Shown here piece by piece: positions 4,885 to 58,437 of a stretch of 64,000 nt of DNA. This DNA comes from a virus, in IMG/VR virus record IMGVR_UViG_3300043397_000067, positions 16,015 to 80,014 of that record. The stretch is one strand, 5' to 3'. Numbering within the stretch: the stretch's first letter is position 1; every line of letters begins with the position of its first letter. Both the position numbers and the translations under genes were made by a program. The notes beneath the pieces are model-generated. The model was not told where the DNA came from. It searched no databases and saw nothing but the letters and a program-made list of their open reading frames with translations.

Positions 4885-4960
4885 GGGACGGTAGCATAAC
4901 GGTTAGTGCCGTGACCTCATAAGTCATAAGGTGTAGGTTCAACTCCTATCCGTCCCACCA
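4885..4960 (+). tRNA. tRNA with CAU anticodon (elongator Met or Ile2)
   Basis: Full cloverleaf: acceptor GGGACGG/CCGTCCC, D stem GCAT/GTGC, anticodon arm GTGAC-CTCATAA-GTCAT, T arm GTAGG-TTCAACT-CCTAT, encoded CCA; 76 nt. Confidence 0.92.
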
Positions 4961-16753: not shown

Positions 16754-19700
16754 TTACCAGTAGGGGATGTATCGGGTGGTTCCCGCCACGGCAATGGCAA
16801 GCCACCCTTGGACTGTGGTGTTAGCGCCAGTCGGGCCAACGCTGCCAAGTGTAGTCGCAACTGCACCATTTGCAACGTTTGAGTTCACAAAATTTACGCG
16901 ACCGTTAGTGGTGCCAGTGCCAGTAGTGAGGTTAATGTCACCACCTACGCCAGAGCTACCATTAGATGCTGTTATAGATACGTTAGCACCAGCACCAGTA
17001 GAGCCTCTAGCCCCGGCTGTTATAGTAACAGCACCTCCTGCCCCGGTGGCCCCACCAGTACCCCCAGCGATATTTACAGCACCACCAGCAGCAGCAAGCC
17101 CACCTGCACCGGCTGTTATGTTTATAGCACCACCGATACCACCAGTAGTCGTAGTAGAACCCTGACCAGCTAGTATGTCTACTTTTCCGCCCACAATGCC
17201 AGTAACTGTGGCACTAGAATTACCAGCAGTAATAACAACATTACCTGCTCTTACATTACTATTGGTTAAGTTACCCGCAGTAATAGTAACATCACCGCCT
17301 TGGTTACCGCCATTACCAGCTGTTACGCTAATAGAGCCTCCGTTAGACCCCGCAGTAGTACCGCCTGTAATAACTACACTACCTCCACTACCTAGTGAGT
17401 TAGTAACTGCACCACCGGTTATAGCTACATTACCCCCAGTACCAGAGCCAGAAGACGTACCACCATTTATAGTAACAAGGCCCCCAGGAGATGTATTAGA
17501 TATACCGTCACCCCCGGATACAGTAGTACTGCCAGATACACCGCCTGAACTACCTCCGGCTTTAATAGATACTGCTCCACCATTCTGGCCAAGGCCACCA
17601 GCTCCAGCAGTTATAGTAACTGCACCGCCAATACCCCCACTGGTAGTTGTAGACCCAGCACCTGCTGTAATTACTACAGGGCCACCAGCCACAGAGGCAA
17701 CTGCACCGGCAGCACCTCCGTTAATTACTACTCCACCGGAGTTACCGGACTGTGCAGCACCCGATGTACCGCCCTGCAGAGTAAGTATCCCAGCAGTAGA
17801 TGCAGAACCACTACCTATTGTAATTGTTATATTACCAGATGTATTTGCATTACCTGTAGTAATACTAATTGCACCGCTAGAGGTTGAGGATGCGGCGGTA
17901 TTTATTGAACACGCCCCTGAGCTACCGGTAGACGAAGAGCCGCTAGCTATAGTTACATTACCGCCAGTAGCTGCAAGTCCACCAGTACCAGCGGTAATAG
18001 AAATAGCGCCTCCAATGCCGCCAGTAGTAGTAGTGGAGCCTGCTCCAGCGGTGAGCACTATTGGGCCACCTGCCACAGAAGCTACTGCACCAGTAGAACC
18101 ACCGTTAATAACTACTCCACCAGAGTTACCGGATTGCGCTGTATTAGATGTTCCACCTTGCAGGGTTAAAATGCCAGCAAATCCGGTAGCTCCACCCGTT
18201 CCAGAGGATATAGTTATATTACCGCCGGAGTTTGAAAGACCTCCAGTACCACCAGTAATTGTAATAGGCCCACCAAAACCCCCTGTAGTTGTGGTAGAAC
18301 CAACACCACCAGTTAACACGACTGGACCACCAGATATACCTATTACTGCACCAGCAGCACCACCAGTTATGACAACACCGCCTGAGTTGCCAGACTGCGT
18401 TGTGTTGGATATACCACCAGTTATATTTAAAATACCCGCTCGCCCTGTAGCACCCCCACTAGCTACAGATAAATTAAGGTTACCGCTTGCAGCAGCAAGT
18501 CCACCAGTACCGGAAGTGATAGTAACTGCACCACCAACGCCACCAGTCGTTGTAGTAGAGCCTGCACCAGCAGTAAGCACAACAGGGCCACCTGCAATAG
18601 AGGCTACAGAGCCAGCGTTGCCTCCCAGCAGAACCACCCCACCGGAGTTACCCGACTGTGCAGACCTTGCTGAACCACCCTGCAAAGTAAGAATACCGGG
18701 GGTGCCTGACGTTGGGTTTCCAACAGAGATAGTTACGTTACCGCTACTACCAGAAGTAGTAGTACCAGAGCTAATGGAGATAGGGCCGCTAGCACCGCTA
18801 GTGCTTCCACCTACTCCGGTAGCTAAAGTAATTGAGCCACTACTACCAGTAGTACTACCGCTACCAGTAGTGAGTTGAAATACTCCACCACCGGATGCTG
18901 ATGGCGTGGTATTAAATACAACATCACCAGTACTAGTAACAAGCAGTATATTAGTAGCCCTTGCATTAACAGACAAGGCGTTTGCAGTGGAGCCAGCAAG
19001 TGTGCTTATGGAGACAAGGTTTTGACTTCCTACGCCGCCAGTAGCTGCGGAAGTTTCACCGATAGCGAATGCCGTCTGAGCGGCTGTAGTCTGCGACCAG
19101 TTCCAAGTCTGTGGATTGTTGCCGTTGGCAAGCGTGTTTGAGCCTGTTGCAGCCGTCAGACCACTCAAGGCCGAGGTCACACTCAACTGGCTTGCTGGGA
19201 CCTTGCCAGTGCCATCCAATGATGCGTAGCCGTTAGCATTACCCTTCTCACTCAAATCCTGCTTGAGATTGAATGCTGTTTGCTGAGCAGTAGAGACTGG
19301 CTTGTTTACGTCAGAAGTGTTATCTACGTTGGATAACCCGATATCGGCTTTAGCAAGTGTTACTACCCCGGCGTATCCATTTACAGAGTCTACTGCACCA
19401 CTGGTTATATAAATATAGGCACTACCAGACCACCTATAAGTCTTGTTTGTATCAAGTGCTACATAAATCTTACCGGTTTCACCGGTTCCTGGAAAGGCTG
19501 CAAGATTGGCGTACTCAAGAACATCGTCAACAAAAGATGGCAGTTGACCCGAGGGAACTTTACCACCAGAGTCCAAGGAAGCATAGCCATTAGCTACGCC
19601 TTTTGCAGATACATCCTGCTTTAAGTTCAAAGCAGTTGTAGTAGCTGTAGAGACAGGCTTATTTACGTCAGATGTATTATCGACGTTGCTAAGTCCAACA

Positions 19701-19930
19701 TCAGCCTTAGTAGGTGCAGACCACGAAAAGTCATAATCTGTAGTACTATTTTTTCTAAGGTAGAAACCTGTAGCACCTCCTGTAGGAGTACCTACACCGG
19801 AGGGGCCTTGGCCCACTGACAAAGCAAGTGCTATAGTGGGGGGCGCACCAATGGCAAGTTGTATCGGGTCTTGCCCGGCCTCCACTACCTCAAGATTTAG
19901 AGGGGCAGGTGTATTAACAGTAATACTCAT
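16754..19930 (-). CDS. Gly/Ser/Thr-rich repeat fibre / receptor-binding protein
   Basis: N-terminal KADVGLSNVDNTSD fibre repeats x2; long GG-x-V-x-I-T-x-G beta-solenoid repeats; C-terminal YIPYW. Confidence 0.7.
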   Translation of the reverse strand: MSITVNTPAPLNLEVVEAGQDPIQLAIGAPPTIALALSVGQGPSGVGTPTGGATGFYLRKNSTTDYDFSWSAPTKADVGLSNVDNTSDVNKPVSTATTTALNLKQDVSAKGVANGYASLDSGGKVPSGQLPSFVDDVLEYANLAAFPGTGETGKIYVALDTNKTYRWSGSAYIYITSGAVDSVNGYAGVVTLAKADIGLSNVDNTSDVNKPVSTAQQTAFNLKQDLSEKGNANGYASLDGTGKVPASQLSVTSALSGLTAATGSNTLANGNNPQTWNWSQTTAAQTAFAIGETSAATGGVGSQNLVSISTLAGSTANALSVNARATNILLVTSTGDVVFNTTPSASGGGVFQLTTGSGSTTGSSGSITLATGVGGSTSGASGPISISSGTTTSGSSGNVTISVGNPTSGTPGILTLQGGSARSAQSGNSGGVVLLGGNAGSVASIAGGPVVLTAGAGSTTTTGGVGGAVTITSGTGGLAAASGNLNLSVASGGATGRAGILNITGGISNTTQSGNSGGVVITGGAAGAVIGISGGPVVLTGGVGSTTTTGGFGGPITITGGTGGLSNSGGNITISSGTGGATGFAGILTLQGGTSNTAQSGNSGGVVINGGSTGAVASVAGGPIVLTAGAGSTTTTGGIGGAISITAGTGGLAATGGNVTIASGSSSTGSSGACSINTAASSTSSGAISITTGNANTSGNITITIGSGSASTAGILTLQGGTSGAAQSGNSGGVVINGGAAGAVASVAGGPVVITAGAGSTTTSGGIGGAVTITAGAGGLGQNGGAVSIKAGGSSGGVSGSTTVSGGDGISNTSPGGLVTINGGTSSGSGTGGNVAITGGAVTNSLGSGGSVVITGGTTAGSNGGSISVTAGNGGNQGGDVTITAGNLTNSNVRAGNVVITAGNSSATVTGIVGGKVDILAGQGSTTTTGGIGGAINITAGAGGLAAAGGAVNIAGGTGGATGAGGAVTITAGARGSTGAGANVSITASNGSSGVGGDINLTTGTGTTNGRVNFVNSNVANGAVATTLGSVGPTGANTTVQGWLAIAVAGTTRYIPYW

Positions 19931-46119: not shown

Positions 46120-47808
46120 TTACGAGTATTCCTTGGGCCTAAACGCTACCAAAAGTGGAGTTCTCCCCGGTTCCGTCCACCCACTTACAGTGCCTAGCAG
46201 GGTAGTAGCAAGGAACATGTACATCAGTGAGAAGAAGTAGTGATCTTGCCCATCAGTCTTCTGCCAACTGAAAACAAGTTCATCATTTTGGAATATCTTA
46301 GTGCGCTTCAAGCTCAAGTAGTGCTCTTGCAGCACACCATCATCTGCTCCCTTTGAGATAAATATCTTATTTTCCTTGAATATCTCAAGCAGCTTATCAA
46401 ATGCAGCAGTACGGTTAATCTTTAGCAAGCGCAAGTTGAGCTTACCCTCTTCTGCATCCTCGTCTTTATCAGCCACAGTGTACATCTGCGGATTCTTGGA
46501 TGTTGTAAACACTGCACCATAAGCATTAGTATCTACTTCGCAGACTGACATAATCTCAGAAACATAAGGTTGTACGTCATGAACTGAGATAACTACCCGG
46601 TATTGGCGTATAAGCTCAAGGCGTCTTTCCCTGAACTTTGATAGTGGCACCATCTCTCTATGCACTACAAGCAACAAGCCTTCGTTAGACAGCCTGCCGA
46701 TAGTCACAGCGCACAGTAAGCCCATGTCAAAGCCCATGAAATGTATAGCACTGCTAGACAAATCCGCTTGTACAAGTGCCTTGCTTATATCCGCTGCCGT
46801 CAACTGCTCATTAGTATCTTCGCTTGTCTCACCTAATACCTGATTTTGCCACTCTGCTCTTGTATTGAACTCCGTACTTGTTCGTACCAAATACGCTGGC
46901 ACAAGCAAGCGGCAAGCAGTGACCGGTGTAACGTAGTGCGTATGTGCTTCATAGTTATCATCTGGGTTTTCTACTACCCACTCAAGTTTTGTAGGGTCAA
47001 GTTGTGGGTCGCGCCTGCAAGCAGGGCACATCCAGTGGGCTTTTTGCCACTGATAGTCCTTGATGTTGTATTTCGTTAACCCTTTAAGGTCATCATAGTA
47101 GCCCGGAATCACAATATCTGTATGGTAACTTGGCAACCACTTATGGCCACAGCAGTTGCATATACCCATGTGGCGTATGCGCTTTGAAGTCTCTGCTTCC
47201 TTAGAAATTCCCACACCTTCTTGTGTAGGAGTACTAAACTGCCTGATAATCTGGTGCTTAGAGGCTTGCAAGCGGCTTCTGAACTGCTTCAAGGTGTCCG
47301 GGTCACATCGGTCTATCTCGTCGGCTACAAGGCAGTCTGCGCTGATAGACAAGGCTGCAGTTTCTGATCTAGTTCCGCGAATAAACAAGAAATTGCCGTT
47401 GATTTCCTTTAACTCTGTAGAGTCTACATTGACGTTTAGCAAGCGCTTAAGGTCAGGACTACCGTAAAGTATGGGATTTACTTTGGTAATTGTCAGTTTT
47501 GTTGCATCATTGGTCGATGGCAAGGCATAAATAACGTTAAACTGTTTTTGTGTAGCAAGGGCAGATAGAAAGTAGCAGATTGTGCTGACAGTCAAGCCGA
47601 TTTGTGCTGGTTTGACTGTGTTCGTTACGCGTGAATCGTCATTAAGAATGGCTCGCTGGAACTCATAACCACCCGTAAAAGACAGCTTTTTGCTCTCTAA
47701 AATGATGTGTTTTTCTGCATAACTTGCTAAATTGTGCAGGTGAAATACGTTATTTAGGCCGTCTTCTATGCGTTTATAGTGGTCATTTAGCACTTCCTGC
47801 CCTTTCAA
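46120..47808 (-). CDS. terL: terminase large subunit (lambda gpA-like ATPase)
   Basis: KPAQIGLT, VADEIDR, FSTPT motifs; CxxC zinc motifs; nuclease GFDMG and DH. Start position uncertain. Confidence 0.9.
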   Translation of the reverse strand: MKGQEVLNDHYKRIEDGLNNVFHLHNLASYAEKHIILESKKLSFTGGYEFQRAILNDDSRVTNTVKPAQIGLTVSTICYFLSALATQKQFNVIYALPSTNDATKLTITKVNPILYGSPDLKRLLNVNVDSTELKEINGNFLFIRGTRSETAALSISADCLVADEIDRCDPDTLKQFRSRLQASKHQIIRQFSTPTQEGVGISKEAETSKRIRHMGICNCCGHKWLPSYHTDIVIPGYYDDLKGLTKYNIKDYQWQKAHWMCPACRRDPQLDPTKLEWVVENPDDNYEAHTHYVTPVTACRLLVPAYLVRTSTEFNTRAEWQNQVLGETSEDTNEQLTAADISKALVQADLSSSAIHFMGFDMGLLCAVTIGRLSNEGLLLVVHREMVPLSKFRERRLELIRQYRVVISVHDVQPYVSEIMSVCEVDTNAYGAVFTTSKNPQMYTVADKDEDAEEGKLNLRLLKINRTAAFDKLLEIFKENKIFISKGADDGVLQEHYLSLKRTKIFQNDELVFSWQKTDGQDHYFFSLMYMFLATTLLGTVSGWTEPGRTPLLVAFRPKEYS

Positions 47809-48154
47809 GTGCTGCTTTATATGCTAACAAGAACTCTTCATGTATAGCTGCATGTGGCTTCAAGGTTTCTAGCAGTACATCTTCAATGATTCTCAAGCGC
47901 CCAGCGTTGTATATATCCGTTTGCTGTTTAGTGATGCTAGCAAGGATAGAAGTAATGGTGTTTAGGGTCTGCGCTTTTTGGTTTAGCGGTGTTTCTGGAT
48001 CGTGCATAACCTCGGATATCAAGGTTTCTGCTCTGTTGTATTGCTTTAGTAGCTCAGTTTCAAGGTTTAGCTCGTTAAAGCTGGTAACCAAGTGTACTTT
48101 TGGTATAACCCTTGGAGTTTCTGGTACGTCGCCTTCAAAATCAATTAGACTCAT
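47783..48154 (-). CDS. probable terminase small subunit
   Basis: Helical 123 aa overlapping the terL start. Confidence 0.55.
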   Translation of the reverse strand: MSLIDFEGDVPETPRVIPKVHLVTSFNELNLETELLKQYNRAETLISEVMHDPETPLNQKAQTLNTITSILASITKQQTDIYNAGRLRIIEDVLLETLKPHAAIHEEFLLAYKAALERAGSAK

Positions 48155-48497
48155 TATCTATCTCCCTTACTTTGTTTACTGCGCGCATCATGGTGTTGTA
48201 GCTTACAAAGGCTATTTTTGCAGCTTGTGATATGCTGTACTTTCCCTTTATTACTTCCCGACCAAGCTCTAATTTCAAGGCTTTACGCGCTTCAATTAAG
48301 GGCTTTTTATTGAATATGGGTTGCTTGCCGGGAAAGACTGAGGATACGTATTTCTCATGCACTCCAAGCTGCTTGGCAAGTTCCCTAGTCGTTATTCTGC
48401 GCTCCCAGAGGTCTTGTCTTTGCTGTTCCGTCGTGCGCGAGGCTACGGTGTCAGGTCGCTTTGGGTTGGCTTTGGGCCATGTCACAGGATATGTCAT
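48141..48497 (-). CDS. basic tandem-HTH DNA-binding protein
   Basis: TTRELAKQLGVHEKYVS and SISQAAKIAFVSYNTM helix-turn-helix patterns. Confidence 0.65.
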   Translation of the reverse strand: MTYPVTWPKANPKRPDTVASRTTEQQRQDLWERRITTRELAKQLGVHEKYVSSVFPGKQPIFNKKPLIEARKALKLELGREVIKGKYSISQAAKIAFVSYNTMMRAVNKVREIDNESN

Positions 48498-48607
48498 TTT
48501 CGGATTGTGCCATAGAATTTTTGGTTTGTGTCGTGTAGGTGTGCATATGTATGTGTTTATAAAAGTTTTAAAATATATTTTGCATTTTTTTGAGGGCTGG
48601 TATGCCG

Positions 48608-48664
48608 CTGTCCACAACTTATCCACAATGTGTATACGTCCAGCTGTGGATAACTTGTGGATAT
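48608..48664. promoter_or_regulatory. cluster of five DnaA boxes
   Basis: CTGTCCACA 48608, TTATCCACA 48619 (perfect), TGTGTATAC 48629, TGTGGATAA 48645 (perfect, reverse), TGTGGATAT 48656. Confidence 0.75.
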
Positions 48665-48854: not shown

Positions 48855-48951
48855 ATCAGACGGTTAAGCACTCCCCGCGCGGCCCCCGCGCTGGGTGTGG
48901 GGAGTGCTCAAAATTCACCCAGCGCGGGAAACCTTTATAGGAAACCCCACC

Positions 48952-49485
48952 ATGCAAACCACAAAATCTATCGCCCTATCTTTTCTCTCTGCAAAACAGC
49001 TGCAAGCGGCCGCAAACTTGGCGGAAATGTCCAGCACTGAACTGACCCTCACGGCCACGGCGGGCCGTGGCGCGGCCCGTAAAGTAGCGGCCCAAATTGT
49101 CGCCGACAATTCATTAGGCGAAGTGCTCGCCCAGTATGAAGCATCCAAATGTTCACGCCCCGAACCGCTGGCCCGGTATGTCCGGGCCTACGTGGGTCAG
49201 TATGAAAGCACGGATAAGCTGCAGGTTTGCCCGTTCAACCGGGCTGGCTTTGAAGCTTACCCACATGCGCTGCAAAGCTGGGCGCTGTCCAGCGAAAACG
49301 AAAAAACGCAGTCGGCCCGGTTGAAAGTGGCCGCGCATGTTGAAAGCGTCGTAAAGCTTGCCGCGCAAGCCTATGACAACATGAAAGCGCAGGAAGCTGC
49401 AGCGCAGGAAGCTGCAGCGCAGGAAGCTGCAGCGCAGGAAGCTGCAGCGCAGGAAGCTGCAGCGCAGGAAGCTGCAACAGCTTGA
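48952..49485 (+). CDS. first early gene, hypothetical with (AQEAA)6 tail
   Basis: AGGAAA RBS; Ala-rich ORF. Confidence 0.6.
   Translation: MQTTKSIALSFLSAKQLQAAANLAEMSSTELTLTATAGRGAARKVAAQIVADNSLGEVLAQYEASKCSRPEPLARYVRAYVGQYESTDKLQVCPFNRAGFEAYPHALQSWALSSENEKTQSARLKVAAHVESVVKLAAQAYDNMKAQEAAAQEAAAQEAAAQEAAAQEAAAQEAATA
49387..49476 (+). repeat. perfect tandem repeat 6 x 15 bp
   Basis: GCGCAGGAAGCTGCA x6. Confidence 0.97.
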
Positions 49486-49508
49486 AACCCGCCGGGCCGC
49501 TATCGGCC

Positions 49509-49549
49509 CGGTTTTCATAGCGGCCCACAGTGGGCCGCTATGAAAACCG
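49509..49549. repeat. 19-bp perfect inverted repeat
   Basis: CGGTTTTCATAGCGGCCCA-CAG-TGGGCCGCTATGAAAACCG. Confidence 0.9.
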
Positions 49550-49560
49550 ATCTTTAAAAA
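49549..49560 (+). promoter_or_regulatory. boxA-like antitermination element
   Basis: GATCTTTAAAAA directly after the long hairpin. Confidence 0.4.
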
Positions 49561-49657
49561 TTCAATGCAAGCTGAAAACCCGCCTTTAGTGGCAGGGATA
49601 AGCACGTCCGGGCCTTAGGTGGTCGCCGGGCGGAAAAGTACACTACGGGAAACCCTA

Positions 49658-49717
49658 CGGGCCGCACCTTAACCGGGCCGCTAGTGACTAACCGGGCCGC
49701 ACCTTAACCGGGCCGCT
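49658..49717 (+). repeat. direct repeats, 4 x CGGGCCGC (25-bp unit duplicated)
   Basis: CGGGCCGCACCTTAACCGGGCCGCT at 49658 and 49693. Confidence 0.9.
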
Positions 49718-50624
49718 CAAATTGTCACACGTAGGGCATACTGGTACAGAATACCGCATTGATGCACACACCGACAACAAACCCTTACGGGGTTGCGCTG
49801 CCGCATGCCTTAAGCGCATGCCTTGCGGCTGTTGTCACAATCCCTTATAGTTGAGTGAACCAAAAGACAATGACATAGAATTTTCTACATCTGAGAATGT
49901 AGGGTTAGCGGGCTAGATTAGCGGCGCGACACGGTGAAAATACGGACTTTCATTTTACAATGTCATATACTGTTGACGCATAGCTGTGAAGCTATACCCC
50001 ATAAATCAGAATAACGGATTAGGGCCTATTTGCGGCCCTAGGCGCGTTGCGTTATAGCCACGCCGTCGAAAAAGTTGTCTAGTAGCTCCTGAGAGTAGGT
50101 GCGTCTGGCTTTGCGTCATTGCGGGCTGGGCTTTCGGTATGTATAGACTCCCTCCCACGTTGTAGACCTTTGCGGAATGCCTCCGCTATAGGTGGGCGTG
50201 GTTACAGTTTATATTGCAGATAGGGTAGGGATGCGAAGCGGACTTAGCAAATACGGCATAGTGACAGTGTGCCTCATGTTGCGGGAACTCATTAAGTCAA
50301 AATCCCGTTCTAGTGGTCGGATAGAGTAGACCAACGCTTATCAGTCTTGCGGAATAGACTTAACCTTAACCCTTAACGCCTTTGCGGAGGGTCTCCGATA
50401 CACGGACGGCCCTCCAGCTCGGCGTTAACGCCCCACGTTGGCGCAAAATTACGATCAAGCGTGAAAAACGCTGCAACCTTCTAGGCCTTCAATGGCTTTG
50501 CGGTATGTCTGCCCTTTGCGGTAGAGCAAACCATCATGCCCACTCTTGTAGTGGGCATTTTAGTTTGTGGGTCTTGCCCTGATACTAAAGGGATTACGGC
50601 TATTTGCCGACTTACGGATTTATC

Positions 50625-50828
50625 ATGTCAGTATCAAGTATCGCTCATTCCATCGCAGCCGTCTGGAATGGGTCAGCACTCCAGACAGAGTGCTTTTATA
50701 CCGGTATTCGGGCAGATATTGCCCATTCCTTGCGGATTGCCCCTAACAGGGCGGACTTCAATGCAGCTTTCGATCTGCTTTCGTGGTATCAGTCCGGTGA
50801 CGGACTGCTTTACTGCACCCTAGATTAA
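50625..50828 (+). CDS. hypothetical protein (67 aa)
   Basis: ATG after a weak GGA; lies between hairpin elements. Confidence 0.4.
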   Translation: MSVSSIAHSIAAVWNGSALQTECFYTGIRADIAHSLRIAPNRADFNAAFDLLSWYQSGDGLLYCTLD

Positions 50829-50874
50829 CAGGGTCTTGCACGTTCCCTTTAATGTGCTATTGATAGGAGTTGCC

Positions 50875-51087
50875 ATGTTGCAACAAAGATTGGACCGGAT
50901 TAACACCCGGATTGTGGAAATCACTCCGGCCTTGTCTAAGGCTTGGGAAGACATGGTAGCCGCTAAGGCTGACCGTGACCCAACGCACCCGCTGTACAAG
51001 GCGTGGAAGGCTATCGACCTCAAGGACAGCCAGCTGCGTGAAACGCGCTCTGATCTTGAGTTCGAGCTTGAGTGCTTGGAAGACTGA
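50875..51087 (+). CDS. small helical early protein ending CLED
   Basis: AGGAG RBS. Confidence 0.65.
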   Translation: MLQQRLDRINTRIVEITPALSKAWEDMVAAKADRDPTHPLYKAWKAIDLKDSQLRETRSDLEFELECLED

Positions 51088-51395
51088 CAGGGCCAGTTAC
51101 ATAGCAGCGCGCTGCTATGTTGCGGGTATTGTTGCCCTAACTTGAAAGGAAGTGTTATGAAACACCAAGACATTATCAAGGCTGTCAAGGCACAGCACTT
51201 GCTTGAGTGTGCCAAGCTCAACATGCTCGACTATAACAAGTTGAGTCTTATCATTGCTATTGCTTGCAATATTGCGGCAGATGTGACGCAACTGCGTCAG
51301 CTTTCGTTGTTCTTGCAGTGCTTGGAAGACTGACAGGGCCAGTAATAGGGCATATGCCCTATTGCGGGGATTGTCCCTAACTTGAGAGGAATATC
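51071..51395 (+). repeat. duplicated intergenic cassette boundary
   Basis: 27-bp AGTGCTTGGAAGACTGACAGGGCCAGT at 51071 and 51317, each followed by a perfect palindrome and CCCTAACTTGARAGGAA. Confidence 0.9.
51157..51333 (+). CDS. small early protein ending CLED
   Basis: AAGGAAG RBS. Confidence 0.6.
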   Translation: MKHQDIIKAVKAQHLLECAKLNMLDYNKLSLIIAIACNIAADVTQLRQLSLFLQCLED

Positions 51396-51542
51396 ATGAG
51401 AATTCTTATGTCTGTTATCGGAGTCGTAGCCATTCCTATGGCTTCGCTTGGGTCTTTGTTCAGCGTTATGACGCTGGCTGAGTGCGGTCTGCTGCTGACC
51501 ATCGCAGTCTTTTGCTGCTGTTTCGGAACGATTGGAGACTGA
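51396..51542 (+). CDS. small membrane protein (48 aa; not in ORF track)
   Basis: GAGGA RBS; MRILMSVIGVVAIPM... two hydrophobic helices. Confidence 0.55.
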   Translation: MRILMSVIGVVAIPMASLGSLFSVMTLAECGLLLTIAVFCCCFGTIGD

Positions 51543-51545
51543 GCC

Positions 51546-51830
51546 ATGAAACCATTTGAAATACGTGCCAAGCTCAAGGAAATGGGCTTCAAGGAAGACC
51601 GCTACGGCAACATGCTTACCCCCAAAGGTAAGTACCGCATACACTTCAACTCTATCTCTTTGCGGGTAGAGAAGAAGCGCCAATGGGTAGACCATTTCAC
51701 GCAGAAAACCCAATCCGACTGGCAAAACCTGCGTACCGTCTACTACACCAACACTGTCATCCAAGACGGTGTGCTGCGTCTGGGCACTCTCGAACTCAAG
51801 GATTATGCTGCTACTGCTGTGGCTGCTTAG
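51546..51830 (+). CDS. hypothetical protein
   Basis: GGAG RBS; 94 aa, basic. Confidence 0.65.
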   Translation: MKPFEIRAKLKEMGFKEDRYGNMLTPKGKYRIHFNSISLRVEKKRQWVDHFTQKTQSDWQNLRTVYYTNTVIQDGVLRLGTLELKDYAATAVAA

Positions 51831-52226
51831 CCTAGACACAACGCATACATTGCGTCCTGTATGGAAGGTGCTTACTACACCCACCTTCCATAACATACAT
51901 CAGCACAGATTTTCGGTGTCTGTTAGCTGAGAGAATACAACCAGAGTACAGGGCTTGCCGGTTTACGCGACGGCAAGCCCGCTTTCGTTTGGGTCCTCAG
52001 GGTCTCAAACGAAAACTAACCAGTTCGTACATTTTGCCGCGCACGTAAGATCGTCAGCACACTGATTATCCAAATTTGCGGATTCTGCACGGCCTTAAGC
52101 AAGTTCCGTGCCAGCAAAGTTTCGCGCAAAAATTTCTAATTTGCAGATTTTTGCAAATCTAGCCCTTCCCGTGCATACTTTTGCATATTTGTTACAATTT
52201 TCCCTAACCATAATGGTGGTATTTTT

Positions 52227-52412
52227 ATGTCCTTCGATAACGAAGACCGTGCATTAGCAAGGTCTTTAGCTCAGGCTGCTGGTACTAACAAGTCAAGAGC
52301 CGCTAACGCTAAAAGACGCACAATCAAGAAAGCAGCCCAACGTATAGGCTTTCTGCCCAAGCAGCCCAATATGCGTACACTGCAACGCATCTTCTTTCAC
52401 TTTGCGGAGTAA
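52227..52412 (+). CDS. small basic protein
   Basis: Follows CATAAT/GGTGG; K/R-rich. Confidence 0.5.
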   Translation: MSFDNEDRALARSLAQAAGTNKSRAANAKRRTIKKAAQRIGFLPKQPNMRTLQRIFFHFAE

Positions 52413-52414
52413 CC

Positions 52415-52603
52415 ATGCGCCTCATTCGCACCCTCTCAAACGATAAAGCCGAAGTCAAAATCTACAAAGACGACGGCGAATTCGTATGCAAGTTGACTGG
52501 TAACCCTGCTGCCGGCTACTTCACTGATGACTGGCAAGATGCAGAGGGCACTGCCAAGCACATGCTGGCCGCACAGGAAATCAAGCTCTGTAAAGCGCAT
52601 TAA
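52415..52603 (+). CDS. hypothetical protein (YFTDD..DA..TA motif)
   Basis: GGAG RBS; recurrent small phage protein motif. Confidence 0.6.
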   Translation: MRLIRTLSNDKAEVKIYKDDGEFVCKLTGNPAAGYFTDDWQDAEGTAKHMLAAQEIKLCKAH

Positions 52604-52955
52604 ACTCTCTGGTATTTGCGGAAAGACTAGCGCCTACAAGTGCTAGCCAAAGGCACTCCCTCTACCTGTGCCTTACACAACCCACAAGCCAGAACAAACC
52701 GCCTACCAAGTGTTTTGCGGTCTTTCCCTCTTCCAGAAAAAGAACTAGAAGAGTAAATAATAAAAATAACAGAATAATTCTATATAATACCTTCTGAGAT
52801 TCTAGTTATTTTTACGGGCGGTCGTAGCAGCTTTTTTTTTGAGTCCAAAATTTTTTACATTTTGTACCCTCAAACCCGTCCCCGTAAATATATCCAGAAA
52901 TCCTGACTGTTCTATCCAGAGTTCAGAACTTTAATAGCTCCAAGTAGGAAATAAT

Positions 52956-53777
52956 ATGGAAAAAGCCCGCTTGTATAACCGACAAGTCGCTACGGTAGGT
53001 ACAATAGTTAAGAACTACCACATCCGGGAGAAGCTTCCACAGAAAGACATATCGGGGTGCAGAGTGCTGCGCCTTGAGTGTGAGTTCTGCAAGGCCCAGC
53101 TAAAATTGAGCTTGTACGAGCTTTTGCGGAGAAAGAGCATCTGCATATGCAGAAAGCAAGACGCCGAGCCAAAGGCAACCACGACCATAGTCCTTGCCCT
53201 GCCGCAAAGCCGCTTGCACTCTTTCAAGCTTGACTACAGGATAAGCCTTGAAAACCGCCTGCAACGTATGCTGCAAAAGACCACAACCCTGAAAGACATA
53301 GGCTACGAGAACATCACAGTCTATGAGATCGTGGGAGACTTGCTGAGAAAAATAGGCAACTTGAAGGACATACTTGAAGCGCCACCAATAAAAAAGCCGG
53401 GAAGGCCGAGAAAGAATCCCGTTCTTATATCCGAACCCGACACAGGCATCAAAGAACTTGAGGTTCAGCCACCACCGCTACCCCAAGAGCCAGAACCACC
53501 AAAAGAAGAACTATCTTGGCCGTCCTTCCTACTTGAAGACCCAGCGGACTATATCTGGTTCACGGCCCAAGCCCCACAAAACCGCTTCCCTCCAAAGTAC
53601 ATCACCGACTGGGTGGAAGAAGCAAACTACGACCCCAAGACCTCAAAGCTGTTTTCCGTAGCCACAGAAGAAGGCCTAAGGGTCCACTACAAGACCTTGC
53701 CAAGAGAAGAAGCGCCAGCAGTATCCTCAAGGATGCCCACTTGGAGCTTTGATGATGACGACGATACCCCATTTTAA
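52956..53777 (+). CDS. Zn-ribbon / AT-hook protein with SSB-like acidic tail
   Basis: CEFC...CIC, KKPGRPRK, C-terminus FDDDDDTPF. Confidence 0.6.
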   Translation: MEKARLYNRQVATVGTIVKNYHIREKLPQKDISGCRVLRLECEFCKAQLKLSLYELLRRKSICICRKQDAEPKATTTIVLALPQSRLHSFKLDYRISLENRLQRMLQKTTTLKDIGYENITVYEIVGDLLRKIGNLKDILEAPPIKKPGRPRKNPVLISEPDTGIKELEVQPPPLPQEPEPPKEELSWPSFLLEDPADYIWFTAQAPQNRFPPKYITDWVEEANYDPKTSKLFSVATEEGLRVHYKTLPREEAPAVSSRMPTWSFDDDDDTPF

Positions 53778-57752: not shown

Positions 57753-58096
57753 CACACCAAGAAATTTTCAACACCGTGCTGTTCGGCCTGCGTAAGCAAG
57801 GGGTAGCTTCCGTGGAGCCGGGCAAAGGGTGCCGCTACCGGGGACCTAATGGCACGAAGTGCGCCGTAGGTATGCTCATACCGGATGATAAATACCACTG
57901 GGAGATTGAAACACTTGGCACATCGGATGCCAAGGTACAAGCCTGCCTGCCCTTCGCTATGGACAGCACGGTTCACCACCTACTTAGCATGCTGCAGTCT
58001 GCCCATGACATTGACCTTCGCCAGTCAATGGAAGAGTGGGAAATTCGTATGGCAAATATTGCCCACTACTTTAATCTGGAGTACACGACATGTTAG
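57749..58096 (+). CDS. hypothetical protein (C.YRG..G.KCAVG...LQ.AHD family)
   Basis: Recurrent phage motif; ATGA coupling. Confidence 0.7.
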   Translation: MTHQEIFNTVLFGLRKQGVASVEPGKGCRYRGPNGTKCAVGMLIPDDKYHWEIETLGTSDAKVQACLPFAMDSTVHHLLSMLQSAHDIDLRQSMEEWEIRMANIAHYFNLEYTTC

Positions 58097-58437
58097 TCAA
58101 AGTTGCAGAAGCTGAGGGCGCCACGCTTGACTGGTTGGTGGCGAAGTGCGAGGGCTTTATCGGCGCAGACGGTAAGTACACCGACGAGTACTGTGATAGC
58201 CTGAGACACGACCAAGACGGTGGATTCTCAACCGAATGGGCACAAGGTGGCCCGATCATTGAGCTGGAACGCATCTGCCTGCGCGACACAGGCGATGAAG
58301 ACGATCTGATGTGGGAAGCGACCGACCAGCGCGAGAGCACGTATTTTCGCGGCCCCACACCCTTGATCGCAGCCATGCGCTGCTACGTGGCGTCCAAGCT
58401 TGGAGAGGAAGTGGAGGTTCCAGATGGCCTTAGTTAA
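58090..58437 (+). CDS. NinX-family (DUF2591) protein
   Basis: LDWLVA, STEWAQGGPIIE, GPTPLIAAMRCYVASKLG motifs. Confidence 0.8.
   Translation: MLVKVAEAEGATLDWLVAKCEGFIGADGKYTDEYCDSLRHDQDGGFSTEWAQGGPIIELERICLRDTGDEDDLMWEATDQRESTYFRGPTPLIAAMRCYVASKLGEEVEVPDGLS

Follow-up and report, generated by a model that had tools for sequence, protein, structure and literature searches.

A strand-specific TTGCGG array in the early module of an uncultured freshwater siphovirus-like genome, tentatively read as Chi-like

Within a 64,000-nt stretch of viral DNA, hereafter the window, the hexamer TTGCGG occurs 19 times on the + strand between positions 49823 and 53129 and not once on the opposite strand. The window comprises bases 16015-80014 of a single virus record of 80,014 bp, IMGVR_UViG_3300043397_000067 (genome label G000), an uncultured, siphovirus-like genome; the source run and the related runs are freshwater metagenomes. 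Counts within this genome and comparisons with its relatives indicate that the array is a real, selected, polar and non-random signal and not an accident of composition. By analogy with the phages LLS, MD8 and P1, we tentatively read it as an array of Chi-like sites for a RecBCD/AddAB-type enzyme of the host, a function that we consider possible rather than probable.

An earlier note, made from the letters of the window, had listed the 19 + strand positions (49823 to 53124), and a direct search recovered every one of them exactly. The note's further statement that reverse-strand copies are lacking was borne out by a count of zero − strand TTGCGG from 49010 to 53202. TTGCGG was the top 6-mer in the 3.6 kb between 49600 and 53200. 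Based on the rest of the 80-kb genome, 0.82 copies would be expected per strand in the array stretch (Poisson P = 9e-20), and a local Markov model of order 1 gave 1.15, both in keeping with the figure of about one that had been put forward. The concern that the enrichment might vanish under a local Markov model proved unfounded: it persisted at orders 1 and 2 (2.7 expected at order 2). The rise in the expectation to 6 and 14 at orders 3 and 4 stems from the array's own 19 copies, which over 3.6 kb supply most of the TTGC>G and TTGCG>G transitions; this result is circular, and the enrichment stands. The 19:0 strand split had a binomial P of ~4e-6. The total over the whole 64-kb window was unremarkable (39 copies on both strands versus 30 ± 5.5 expected), which makes the anomaly a local one. 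Away from the array, 19 copies were counted on the + strand of the genome and 18 on the − strand, which corresponds to the chance level with no strand bias; the genome-wide + strand total was thus 38, while other hexamers reach 93. None of the 18 one-mismatch variants was clearly enriched, indicating that the word is a strict hexamer. A preceding T, described earlier as frequent, was present at 11 of the 19 window sites; this tendency did not extend to the relatives. As had been noted, the sites occupy both coding and non-coding sequence: on our map of open reading frames (ORFs), 14 were non-coding and five lay in small ORFs.

Coding repeats can mimic polar word clusters of this kind. At 16987-18925 (+) of the window, CACCAG occurs 20 times on one strand and 0 times on the other, overlapping clusters of CCAGTA and ACCAGT. 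This cluster lies inside a 1058-aa tail-fibre-like gene (16754-19930, − strand) and is a coding repeat.

Using the gene for the large terminase subunit, TerL (46120..47808, − strand), as the anchor for finding syntenic loci, we searched IMG/VR and metagenome contigs and obtained about 100 related loci. The presence of the array at the syntenic position, a point raised in the earlier note, was confirmed in several diverged lineages. At least four lineages besides G000 carry it, with TerL identities of 57-61% and GC contents of 0.44-0.57, and in the array-bearing relatives it lies on the same strand relative to terL, 1.7-3.1 kb past the TerL start. In L008/L004 (genomes G001/G003; TerL 57%, GC 0.56), there are 18 sites in 1.46 kb and 0 on the opposite strand, with 13 of the 18 packed into a 440-bp non-coding core. 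Counts on the same and opposite strands were 13:0 in L019 (TerL 61%, GC 0.44), 8:1 in L005 and 7:0 within 1.1 kb in L025 (genome G006); a looser array in L260 had a split of 13:4. With the exception of TerS, the small terminase subunit, no homologue of the window's early ORFs was found in the array-bearing loci, nor did these loci share any sequence block beyond the word itself. The absence of homology besides the word indicates that TTGCGG is maintained independently in non-homologous DNA. When 66 sites from five lineages were aligned, information was confined to the six letters of TTGCGG and no flanking or extended consensus emerged. An 11-mer, ACGCATACAAC, was considered as a longer consensus and rejected: it stands upstream of the arrays of three relatives and is absent at that place in the window.

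Close relatives can be without the array. L001-L003, whose TerL and TerS are 99% and 95% identical to those of the window, share 94% nucleotide identity with it until 48604, at the start of the putative terS (48141..48626, − strand), and then diverge completely. No TTGCGG was found in the 1.6 kb available beyond this breakpoint in L001-L003, a distance within which the window already has four. Genomes G006 and G007 are 86% identical over terS/terL and diverge at the same point (G006 37921); no array was present anywhere in the complete genome of G007. The complete genomes G005 (TerL 62%), G008 and G002 also had none. A de novo scan detected no replacement one-strand word in the array-less G005 and G007, and the candidates for other one-strand words in relatives were rejected as tandem or coding repeats. 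The mosaic breakpoint is therefore sharp and falls exactly at the terS start, past which phages that are 86-94% identical in their structural and terminase genes carry unrelated early modules. These comparisons indicate that the array belongs to a swappable early module and not to the packaging or replication genes, and the lack of co-inheritance with those genes argues against pac, cosQ-like and origin roles.

Beyond these loci, an IMG/VR-wide scan for three close copies of TTGCGG returned more than 120 matches, mostly coding repeats (collagen-like, Gly/Pro-rich), and provides no evidence of a widespread array. One IMG/VR contig of 5,065 nt, L147, carries a non-coding, co-oriented TTGCGG(G) array of nine sites in ~1 kb. 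No homology between this contig and the five complete genomes was detectable; it may be a piece of some other early module. In L006 (TerL 57%), seven head-to-tail TTGCGG copies with a period of 6 lie at 1156-1197 on the locus + strand, ~1.4 kb from TerL. They are on the terL strand, in the orientation opposite to that of the arrays, and may either be low-complexity coding sequence or have a link to the motif. At L011 8140-8290 (G001 70140-70281), outside the array, two tandem TTTTGCGGG on the + strand face two on the − strand, ~120 nt apart, such that the same word forms a large inverted repeat.

The coding sites provide a further view of what is being maintained. Three of the five in-ORF sites of the window are TTG-CGG codon pairs, a pair that occurs once in 12,627 codons of long genes versus three times in ~730 early-ORF codons. 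In G001, three + strand sites lie antisense within an inserted − strand Ant/Rha-like gene that has its own promoter; ~0.26 would be expected there, and 0 sense copies were present. Because of the codon-pair excess and the antisense copies, the sequences indicate that selection acts on the DNA or RNA letters themselves. In strain variants from metagenome contigs, whose substitutions are too few to gauge constraint, sites were changed in one of seven cases in run X7 and in none of six in run X9, versus ~1 expected. The earlier note had argued from polarity that the array must be a signal. The conservation in non-homologous DNA, the codon-pair cost and the antisense sites uphold this argument for a non-random polar signal.

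Within the window, the array opens with a dense core of nine sites in ~700 nt (49823..50521, + strand), within an apparently non-coding leader of roughly 0.8 kb before the first early ORF: the sites are in mixed phases and no ORF in the core has a ribosome-binding site. A block of small early ORFs follows on the + strand (50626..53777), namely 50626-50823, 50876-51087, 51158-51333, 51396-51542, 51546-51830, 52227-52412, 52415-52603 and 52956-53777, with putative starts and ribosome-binding sites as read from the sequence. The five sites at 50730, 51272, 51660, 52402 and 53124 fall inside these ORFs, and the five at 51120, 51362, 52076, 52616 and 52715 fall between them. Two intergenic sites are embedded in paralogous modules. 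The first module (51097..51150, + strand) consists of a hairpin, TTGCGGG, ATTGT, CCCTAACTTGA and the ribosome-binding site of the next ORF; the second (51341..51391, + strand) includes CTATTGCGG at 51354-51362. In a natural variant from run X9, 51127-51370 is deleted (joint 51127>51370), which is consistent with recombination between the two modules.

The sites appear to stand alone. TTGCGG was rejected as the −35 box of a sigma-70 promoter, as TAnnnT was not enriched at any fixed offset from the 66 sites, and a promoter scan of the region found five promoters versus 5.0 expected, with no excess. A terminator- or hairpin-linked element was also rejected: some sites follow hairpins, notably in modules 1 and 2, and there was no overall association. 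Folding of the 32 nt upstream and 33 nt downstream of the sites was not consistently better than at control positions. Spacings between sites were irregular, without helical phasing. The RNA leaders as a whole fold better than shuffled sequences (z = −2.6 in the window, z = −4.7 in G001). In predicted folds, the motif had a P(unpaired) of 0.23 versus 0.33 for GC-matched hexamers (P = 0.001). An Rfam search returned nothing significant.

Among the functional options that the earlier note had raised, we prefer a Chi-like role because it has a close published precedent (PMC12315714). According to that study, 20 of the 23 Chi sites of the Escherichia coli phage LLS are co-oriented and clustered near one genome end, the Pseudomonas aeruginosa phage MD8 carries 32 Pseudomonas Chi sites, all on one strand, and P1 has 50 Chi sites (PMC12315714). 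The three phages are without Rec modules and anti-RecBCD genes, and Chi richness is patchy among their relatives (PMC12315714, Genome Res 2025). We found no lambda-Gam, Mu-Gam, RecT, ERF or Sak4 in G000, G001, G005, G006 or G007. On the Chi-like reading, a host helicase-nuclease of the RecBCD/AddAB type would recognise a short asymmetric word, either TTGCGG or the complementary sequence according to the DNA end that is open to it. Such an enzyme would track along DNA one way and, with a probability below 1 at each copy, would cease degrading and begin to promote recombination. A large number of co-oriented copies, spread over a non-coding stretch and the early genes, would then halt degradation of the phage DNA and/or feed host recombination. 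What we infer in this scheme is who reads the word, in which direction and to what advantage for the phage. Sites without flanking consensus, promoter partner, consistent hairpin or phasing are what a tracking enzyme predicts, as opposed to a cooperative binding array.

Because the hexamer is kept in unrelated early modules, while close relatives that share the core genes are without the array, the reader would most simply be a conserved host factor. To our knowledge, few host machines read lineage-specific polar words of 5-8 nt, the main ones being RecBCD/AddAB (Chi) and FtsK/SpoIIIE (KOPS/SRS). A KOPS-like role, also proposed in the earlier note, found no support, there being no genome-wide skew. 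The Chi words of AddAB are AGCGG in Bacillus subtilis and GAAGCGG in Staphylococcus aureus, and TTGCGG resembles them in being G/T-rich and ending in GCGG. A literature search on the bare motif TTGCGG returned primer sequences only, and a survey of Chi motifs does not mention it (PMC8022716).

Phage Chi-site clusters are expected close to the DNA end through which the nuclease enters, in the active orientation; G001 provides a candidate end. At the start of this contig (L086), an Illumina TruSeq adapter is fused to the genome at position 37 (TGACTCGCCATGCC...), and the adapter-joined sequence TGACTCGCCATGCC recurs ~77 nt before the contig end (L011 end). The marked position is 11 nt before a gene start and ~10 kb downstream of the array, and no TTGCGG coincides with it. 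The record is listed in IMG/VR as 'linear'. An adapter fusion is what results when many fragments begin at a single position, as at a physical end, so the junction is probably the physical left end of the genome or a pac cut. If it is a true terminus, the array would lie in the last ~15% of the linear genome, and the 3′ end of the TTGCGG strand would point to that end, which would be the active geometry by analogy with LLS and MD8. The 'DTR' flags on G002 and G008 were rejected as evidence of terminal repeats, since they are actually 127-bp assembly overlaps. An ejection ratchet or other leading-end role, another of the earlier proposals, loses weight with the adapter-marked end of G001 ~10 kb from the array.

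Several observations weigh against a Chi-like function. The array-less relatives are also without a recognisable Gam or Rec, and the absence of these genes therefore does not discriminate; many early genes, moreover, are of unassigned function. The phage itself carries SbcCD-like nuclease genes. Unlike the sites in LLS, MD8 and P1, TTGCGG shows neither enrichment nor strand bias beyond the 3.3-kb array, and other hexamers outnumber it in the genome as a whole. The density in G001, 13 sites in 440 bp, is far above that of known Chi-rich phages. A search of bacterial genomes by the TerL locus gave a single match, of 25% identity, in a planctomycete metagenome-assembled genome; TTGCGG shows no excess in this genome, the sole bacterial one reached and a weak match. 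If the end in G001 is real, ~10 kb of early genes would be left unprotected between it and the array. Finally, were the end instead to lie between terS and the array, as in a lambda- or N4-like layout, the word read would be CCGCAA, which is C-rich and unlike any known Chi.

The strongest rival, although we judge it doubtful, is an early-operon signal linked to transcription or RNA, which a conserved factor of the host or a core factor of the phage would recognise either on the non-template strand or, as UUGCGG, in nascent RNA. The sites could act as repeated pauses, as antitermination or anti-Rho elements, or as endoribonuclease cleavage sites that time the shut-off of early mRNA; the RegB protein of T4 is a sequence-specific endoribonuclease that acts at GGAG. 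All lineages have the word on the strand that is sense for the early genes. The array begins directly past the divergent terS/early control region; its density peaks in the untranslated leader and falls off along the operon, and there is no array in the middle and late genes. The better-than-shuffled folding of the leaders also fits such a role, as do the canonical sigma-70-like promoters in the region, on account of which host RNA polymerase probably transcribes it. In addition, TGCG matches the downstream part of the consensus elemental pause. However, no known factor reads TTGCGG, and the absence of a promoter-like partner at a fixed offset, of a consistent hairpin link and of an Rfam match also counts against this role. 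The three sites in the opposite-strand gene of G001, which has its own promoter, would require antisense read-through, and one antitermination site per operon normally suffices. The greater pairing of the motif is unlike the displayed motifs of CsrB-type RNAs; for the same reason, predicted folding does not support a 'sponge'-like display of the RNA-binding site that the earlier note had listed.

If the array is not Chi-like, it could also be something of a new kind, which we think unlikely: an early-leader DNA or RNA cassette that captures or redirects a conserved, nucleic-acid-tracking host factor other than RecBCD/AddAB. Such a factor might be, for example, a defence sensor, a transcription-elongation factor or a ribonuclease, and the module would then be an optional, swappable counter-defence or take-over device.

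It is less likely still that the array binds a protein on double-stranded DNA, whether as a set of operators, as a roadblock of the 'stoperator' kind or as a nucleoprotein platform through which the early operon is silenced or insulated; either phage or host could encode the protein. The sites are co-oriented, asymmetric, mainly intergenic, located at the head of the operon and aligned with transcription, a layout reminiscent of the stoperators of Cluster A mycobacteriophages. Nevertheless, six conserved base pairs are too few for specific recognition of a duplex, 37 further copies lie elsewhere in the genome at chance level, and the sites are not helically phased. No DNA-binding gene is common to the non-homologous early modules. 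A NinX-like gene (PF10765, window 58090-58437) favours this explanation, being the sole one that all three complete genomes with the array have in common and that G005, G007 and G008 lack. However, the array-less G002 carries NinX as well, the family numbers more than 8,000 members, the gene is linked to the module, and its co-occurrence has a probability of 4/35 by chance. The only relatives of the NinX-like protein in the PDB are uncharacterised. As a candidate reader, this protein is thus a weak lead, the association being confounded.

A replication origin, in which the sites serve as template words for the phage PrimPol-helicase or as iterons that load it one way, is very unlikely. The genome does encode a 955-aa primase-helicase, the non-coding core is compact and holds co-oriented repeats, and prim-pols and the alpha protein of P4 recognise short words or octamer iterons. 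Against this, the replication genes are core genes that are also found in the array-less complete relatives, and the two of these examined, G005 and G007, have no replacement array. Moreover, the array is ~28 kb from the primase gene, its sites reach 3 kb into coding DNA, and there is no AT-rich unwinding element beside the dense core.

We consider it highly improbable that the array is a packaging signal, either a series of recognition or cleavage sites for terminase (pac) or a brake that terminates packaging. The array lies 1.2 kb from terS and is polar, as the direction of packaging requires, and some pac phages (Sf6, ES18) initiate over kilobase-wide zones. In SPP1, TerL cleavage occurs at CTATTGCGG^C, and TTGCGG^CW has been described as a pseudo-pac word (PMC5615212). 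The window sequence at 51354-51362, CTATTGCGG, is identical to the SPP1 9-mer before the cut. This match is probably a coincidence because the TerL of G000 is unrelated to SPP1 G2P, to which it has no detectable similarity. The array does not travel with the terminase, as L001-L003 and G007 demonstrate, and the only clue to a physical end, that in G001, is not at a TTGCGG.

The absence of any function, with the array an accident of composition, coding repeats or recent local duplication, is effectively refuted by the sequence comparisons: two of the 19 sites do lie in paralogous intergenic modules, and many IMG/VR matches to triple TTGCGG are coding repeats, but the P value of 9e-20, the unrelated flanks, the mostly non-coding sites and the same-strand conservation in non-homologous sequence of at least four other lineages oppose it.

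With regard to the surrounding genome, the − strand of G000 encodes a 2,231-aa tape-measure protein, the portal, TerL and the putative TerS. A long + strand block encodes the primase-helicase, with its PrimPol-like N-terminus, a PolA-type polymerase, an SbcC-like protein, RtcB, a DNA ligase and one tRNA-Met. Among the proteins scanned, no RNA polymerase, integrase or repressor was recognised. By TerL, the nearest cultured phages, at 26-29% identity, are Vibrio SHOU24-like, Caulobacter Seuss and Acinetobacter Mystique, the layout of the last differing from that of G000. RtcB, an RNA ligase (L083 5049-6278 in the G000 genome; PHROG E = 1e-149), occurs together with the tRNA-Met (window 4885-4960) and the ligase, which is ATP-dependent. 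This combination may be an RNA-repair counter-measure against host anticodon nucleases.

The array is located at the point of divergence between the leftward late and packaging genes and the rightward early genes, its onset being 1.2 kb past terS. From terS onwards come a small + gene with a tandem repeat, a 20-bp hairpin, two 25-nt direct repeats and then the array. The small gene (48895..49485, + strand) contains a 15-nt tandem repeat (AQEAA x6) and matches no family; its syntenic counterpart, or the repeat, is present in most relatives, array-bearing or not. It is followed by a perfect 20-bp inverted repeat (49509..49549) that forms a terminator-like hairpin closing the gene between terS and the array. 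The two identical 25-nt direct repeats, CGGGCCGCACCTTAACCGGGCCGCT, lie at 49658..49717 (+ strand), shortly before the first TTGCGG, and may belong to an operator or promoter region. Two perfect DnaA boxes in inverted arrangement (TTATCCACA / TGTGGATAA) at window 48611-48661 overlap the putative terS start. This pair was found in G000 only and is not at that place in G001, G005, G006 or G007.

Almost all relatives have a tandem repeat, with a period of 6, 7, 12, 15, 18 or 24 nt, 1.4-3.3 kb past the TerL start. These repeats lie in or after the small + gene beside terS (window 49386-49475) and were seen in L014, L022, L027, L032, L039, L062, L070, L078, L080 and L081. One with a period of 7 cannot be coding. 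Many metagenome contigs stop inside the repeat, indicating that it is hypervariable and breaks assemblies.

If the Chi-like reading is correct, these phages would reveal the recombination-hotspot word of an uncultured freshwater bacterial lineage. The Chi-rich strategy would extend from lambdoid coliphages and Pseudomonas phages to unrelated siphoviruses of 70-90 kb, and the array would be the first dedicated, non-coding and very dense Chi cassette that is swapped with an early module. In that host, the cassette could double as a compact means of protecting linear DNA. Should the reading prove wrong, selection still maintains a polar hexamer at the heads of early operons, and its reader would be a tractable entry to an undescribed step of early infection.

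Several known systems resemble the array in part. T7-like genomes carry arrays of short repeats inside the left end, abutting the physical end, and the PeSLs (promoter-early stem-loops) of T4-type phages are cassettes of a full promoter and a stem-loop. With these the array appears to share co-oriented short repeats at the start of the early region and intergenic modules that flank tiny early ORFs and mediate gain and loss of cassettes, as in the 51127-51370 deletion. The T4 elements differ in that TTGCGG has no promoter partner and that a hairpin precedes only some of the sites. The CsrB/RsmZ sponge RNAs have a comparable motif density in an untranslated stretch of RNA size (13 sites in 440 nt here). 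Points of difference are the absence of GGA motifs and of an Rfam match, the predicted pairing of the motif, and sites that run on into coding genes. The pac of SPP1 contains the same hexamer and is likewise polar and beside terS, and one of the 19 window sites has the full 9-mer. However, SPP1 has a single pac inside gene 1, whereas the 19 sites here are outside terS and are not co-inherited with the terminase.

The stoperators, which are the sites of the L5 gp71 and Bxb1 gp69 repressors, are 13 bp long, are spread over both arms of the genome and have a cognate repressor gene. Like them, the TTGCGG sites are asymmetric, mostly intergenic and co-oriented with transcription, and they might have a similarly orientation-dependent effect on elongating RNA polymerase. 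By contrast, only 6 bp are conserved here, the sites occupy one 3.3-kb stretch where the early operon begins, no cognate gene was recognised among the proteins scanned, and the late genes of G000, on the other strand, carry no matching array.

The array differs from the Chi clusters of LLS, MD8 and P1 in that enrichment is limited to 1.5-3.3 kb, with a non-coding core up to ~10 times denser, and in that the genome as a whole shows no excess or strand bias. Both consist of a short asymmetric word that lies (almost) entirely on one strand and is concentrated in one part of the genome, in coding as well as non-coding sites, and both are patchy among relatives. In polarity, the splits of 19:0 in the window and of 18:0, 13:0, 8:1 and 7:0 in the relatives are comparable to those of this class.

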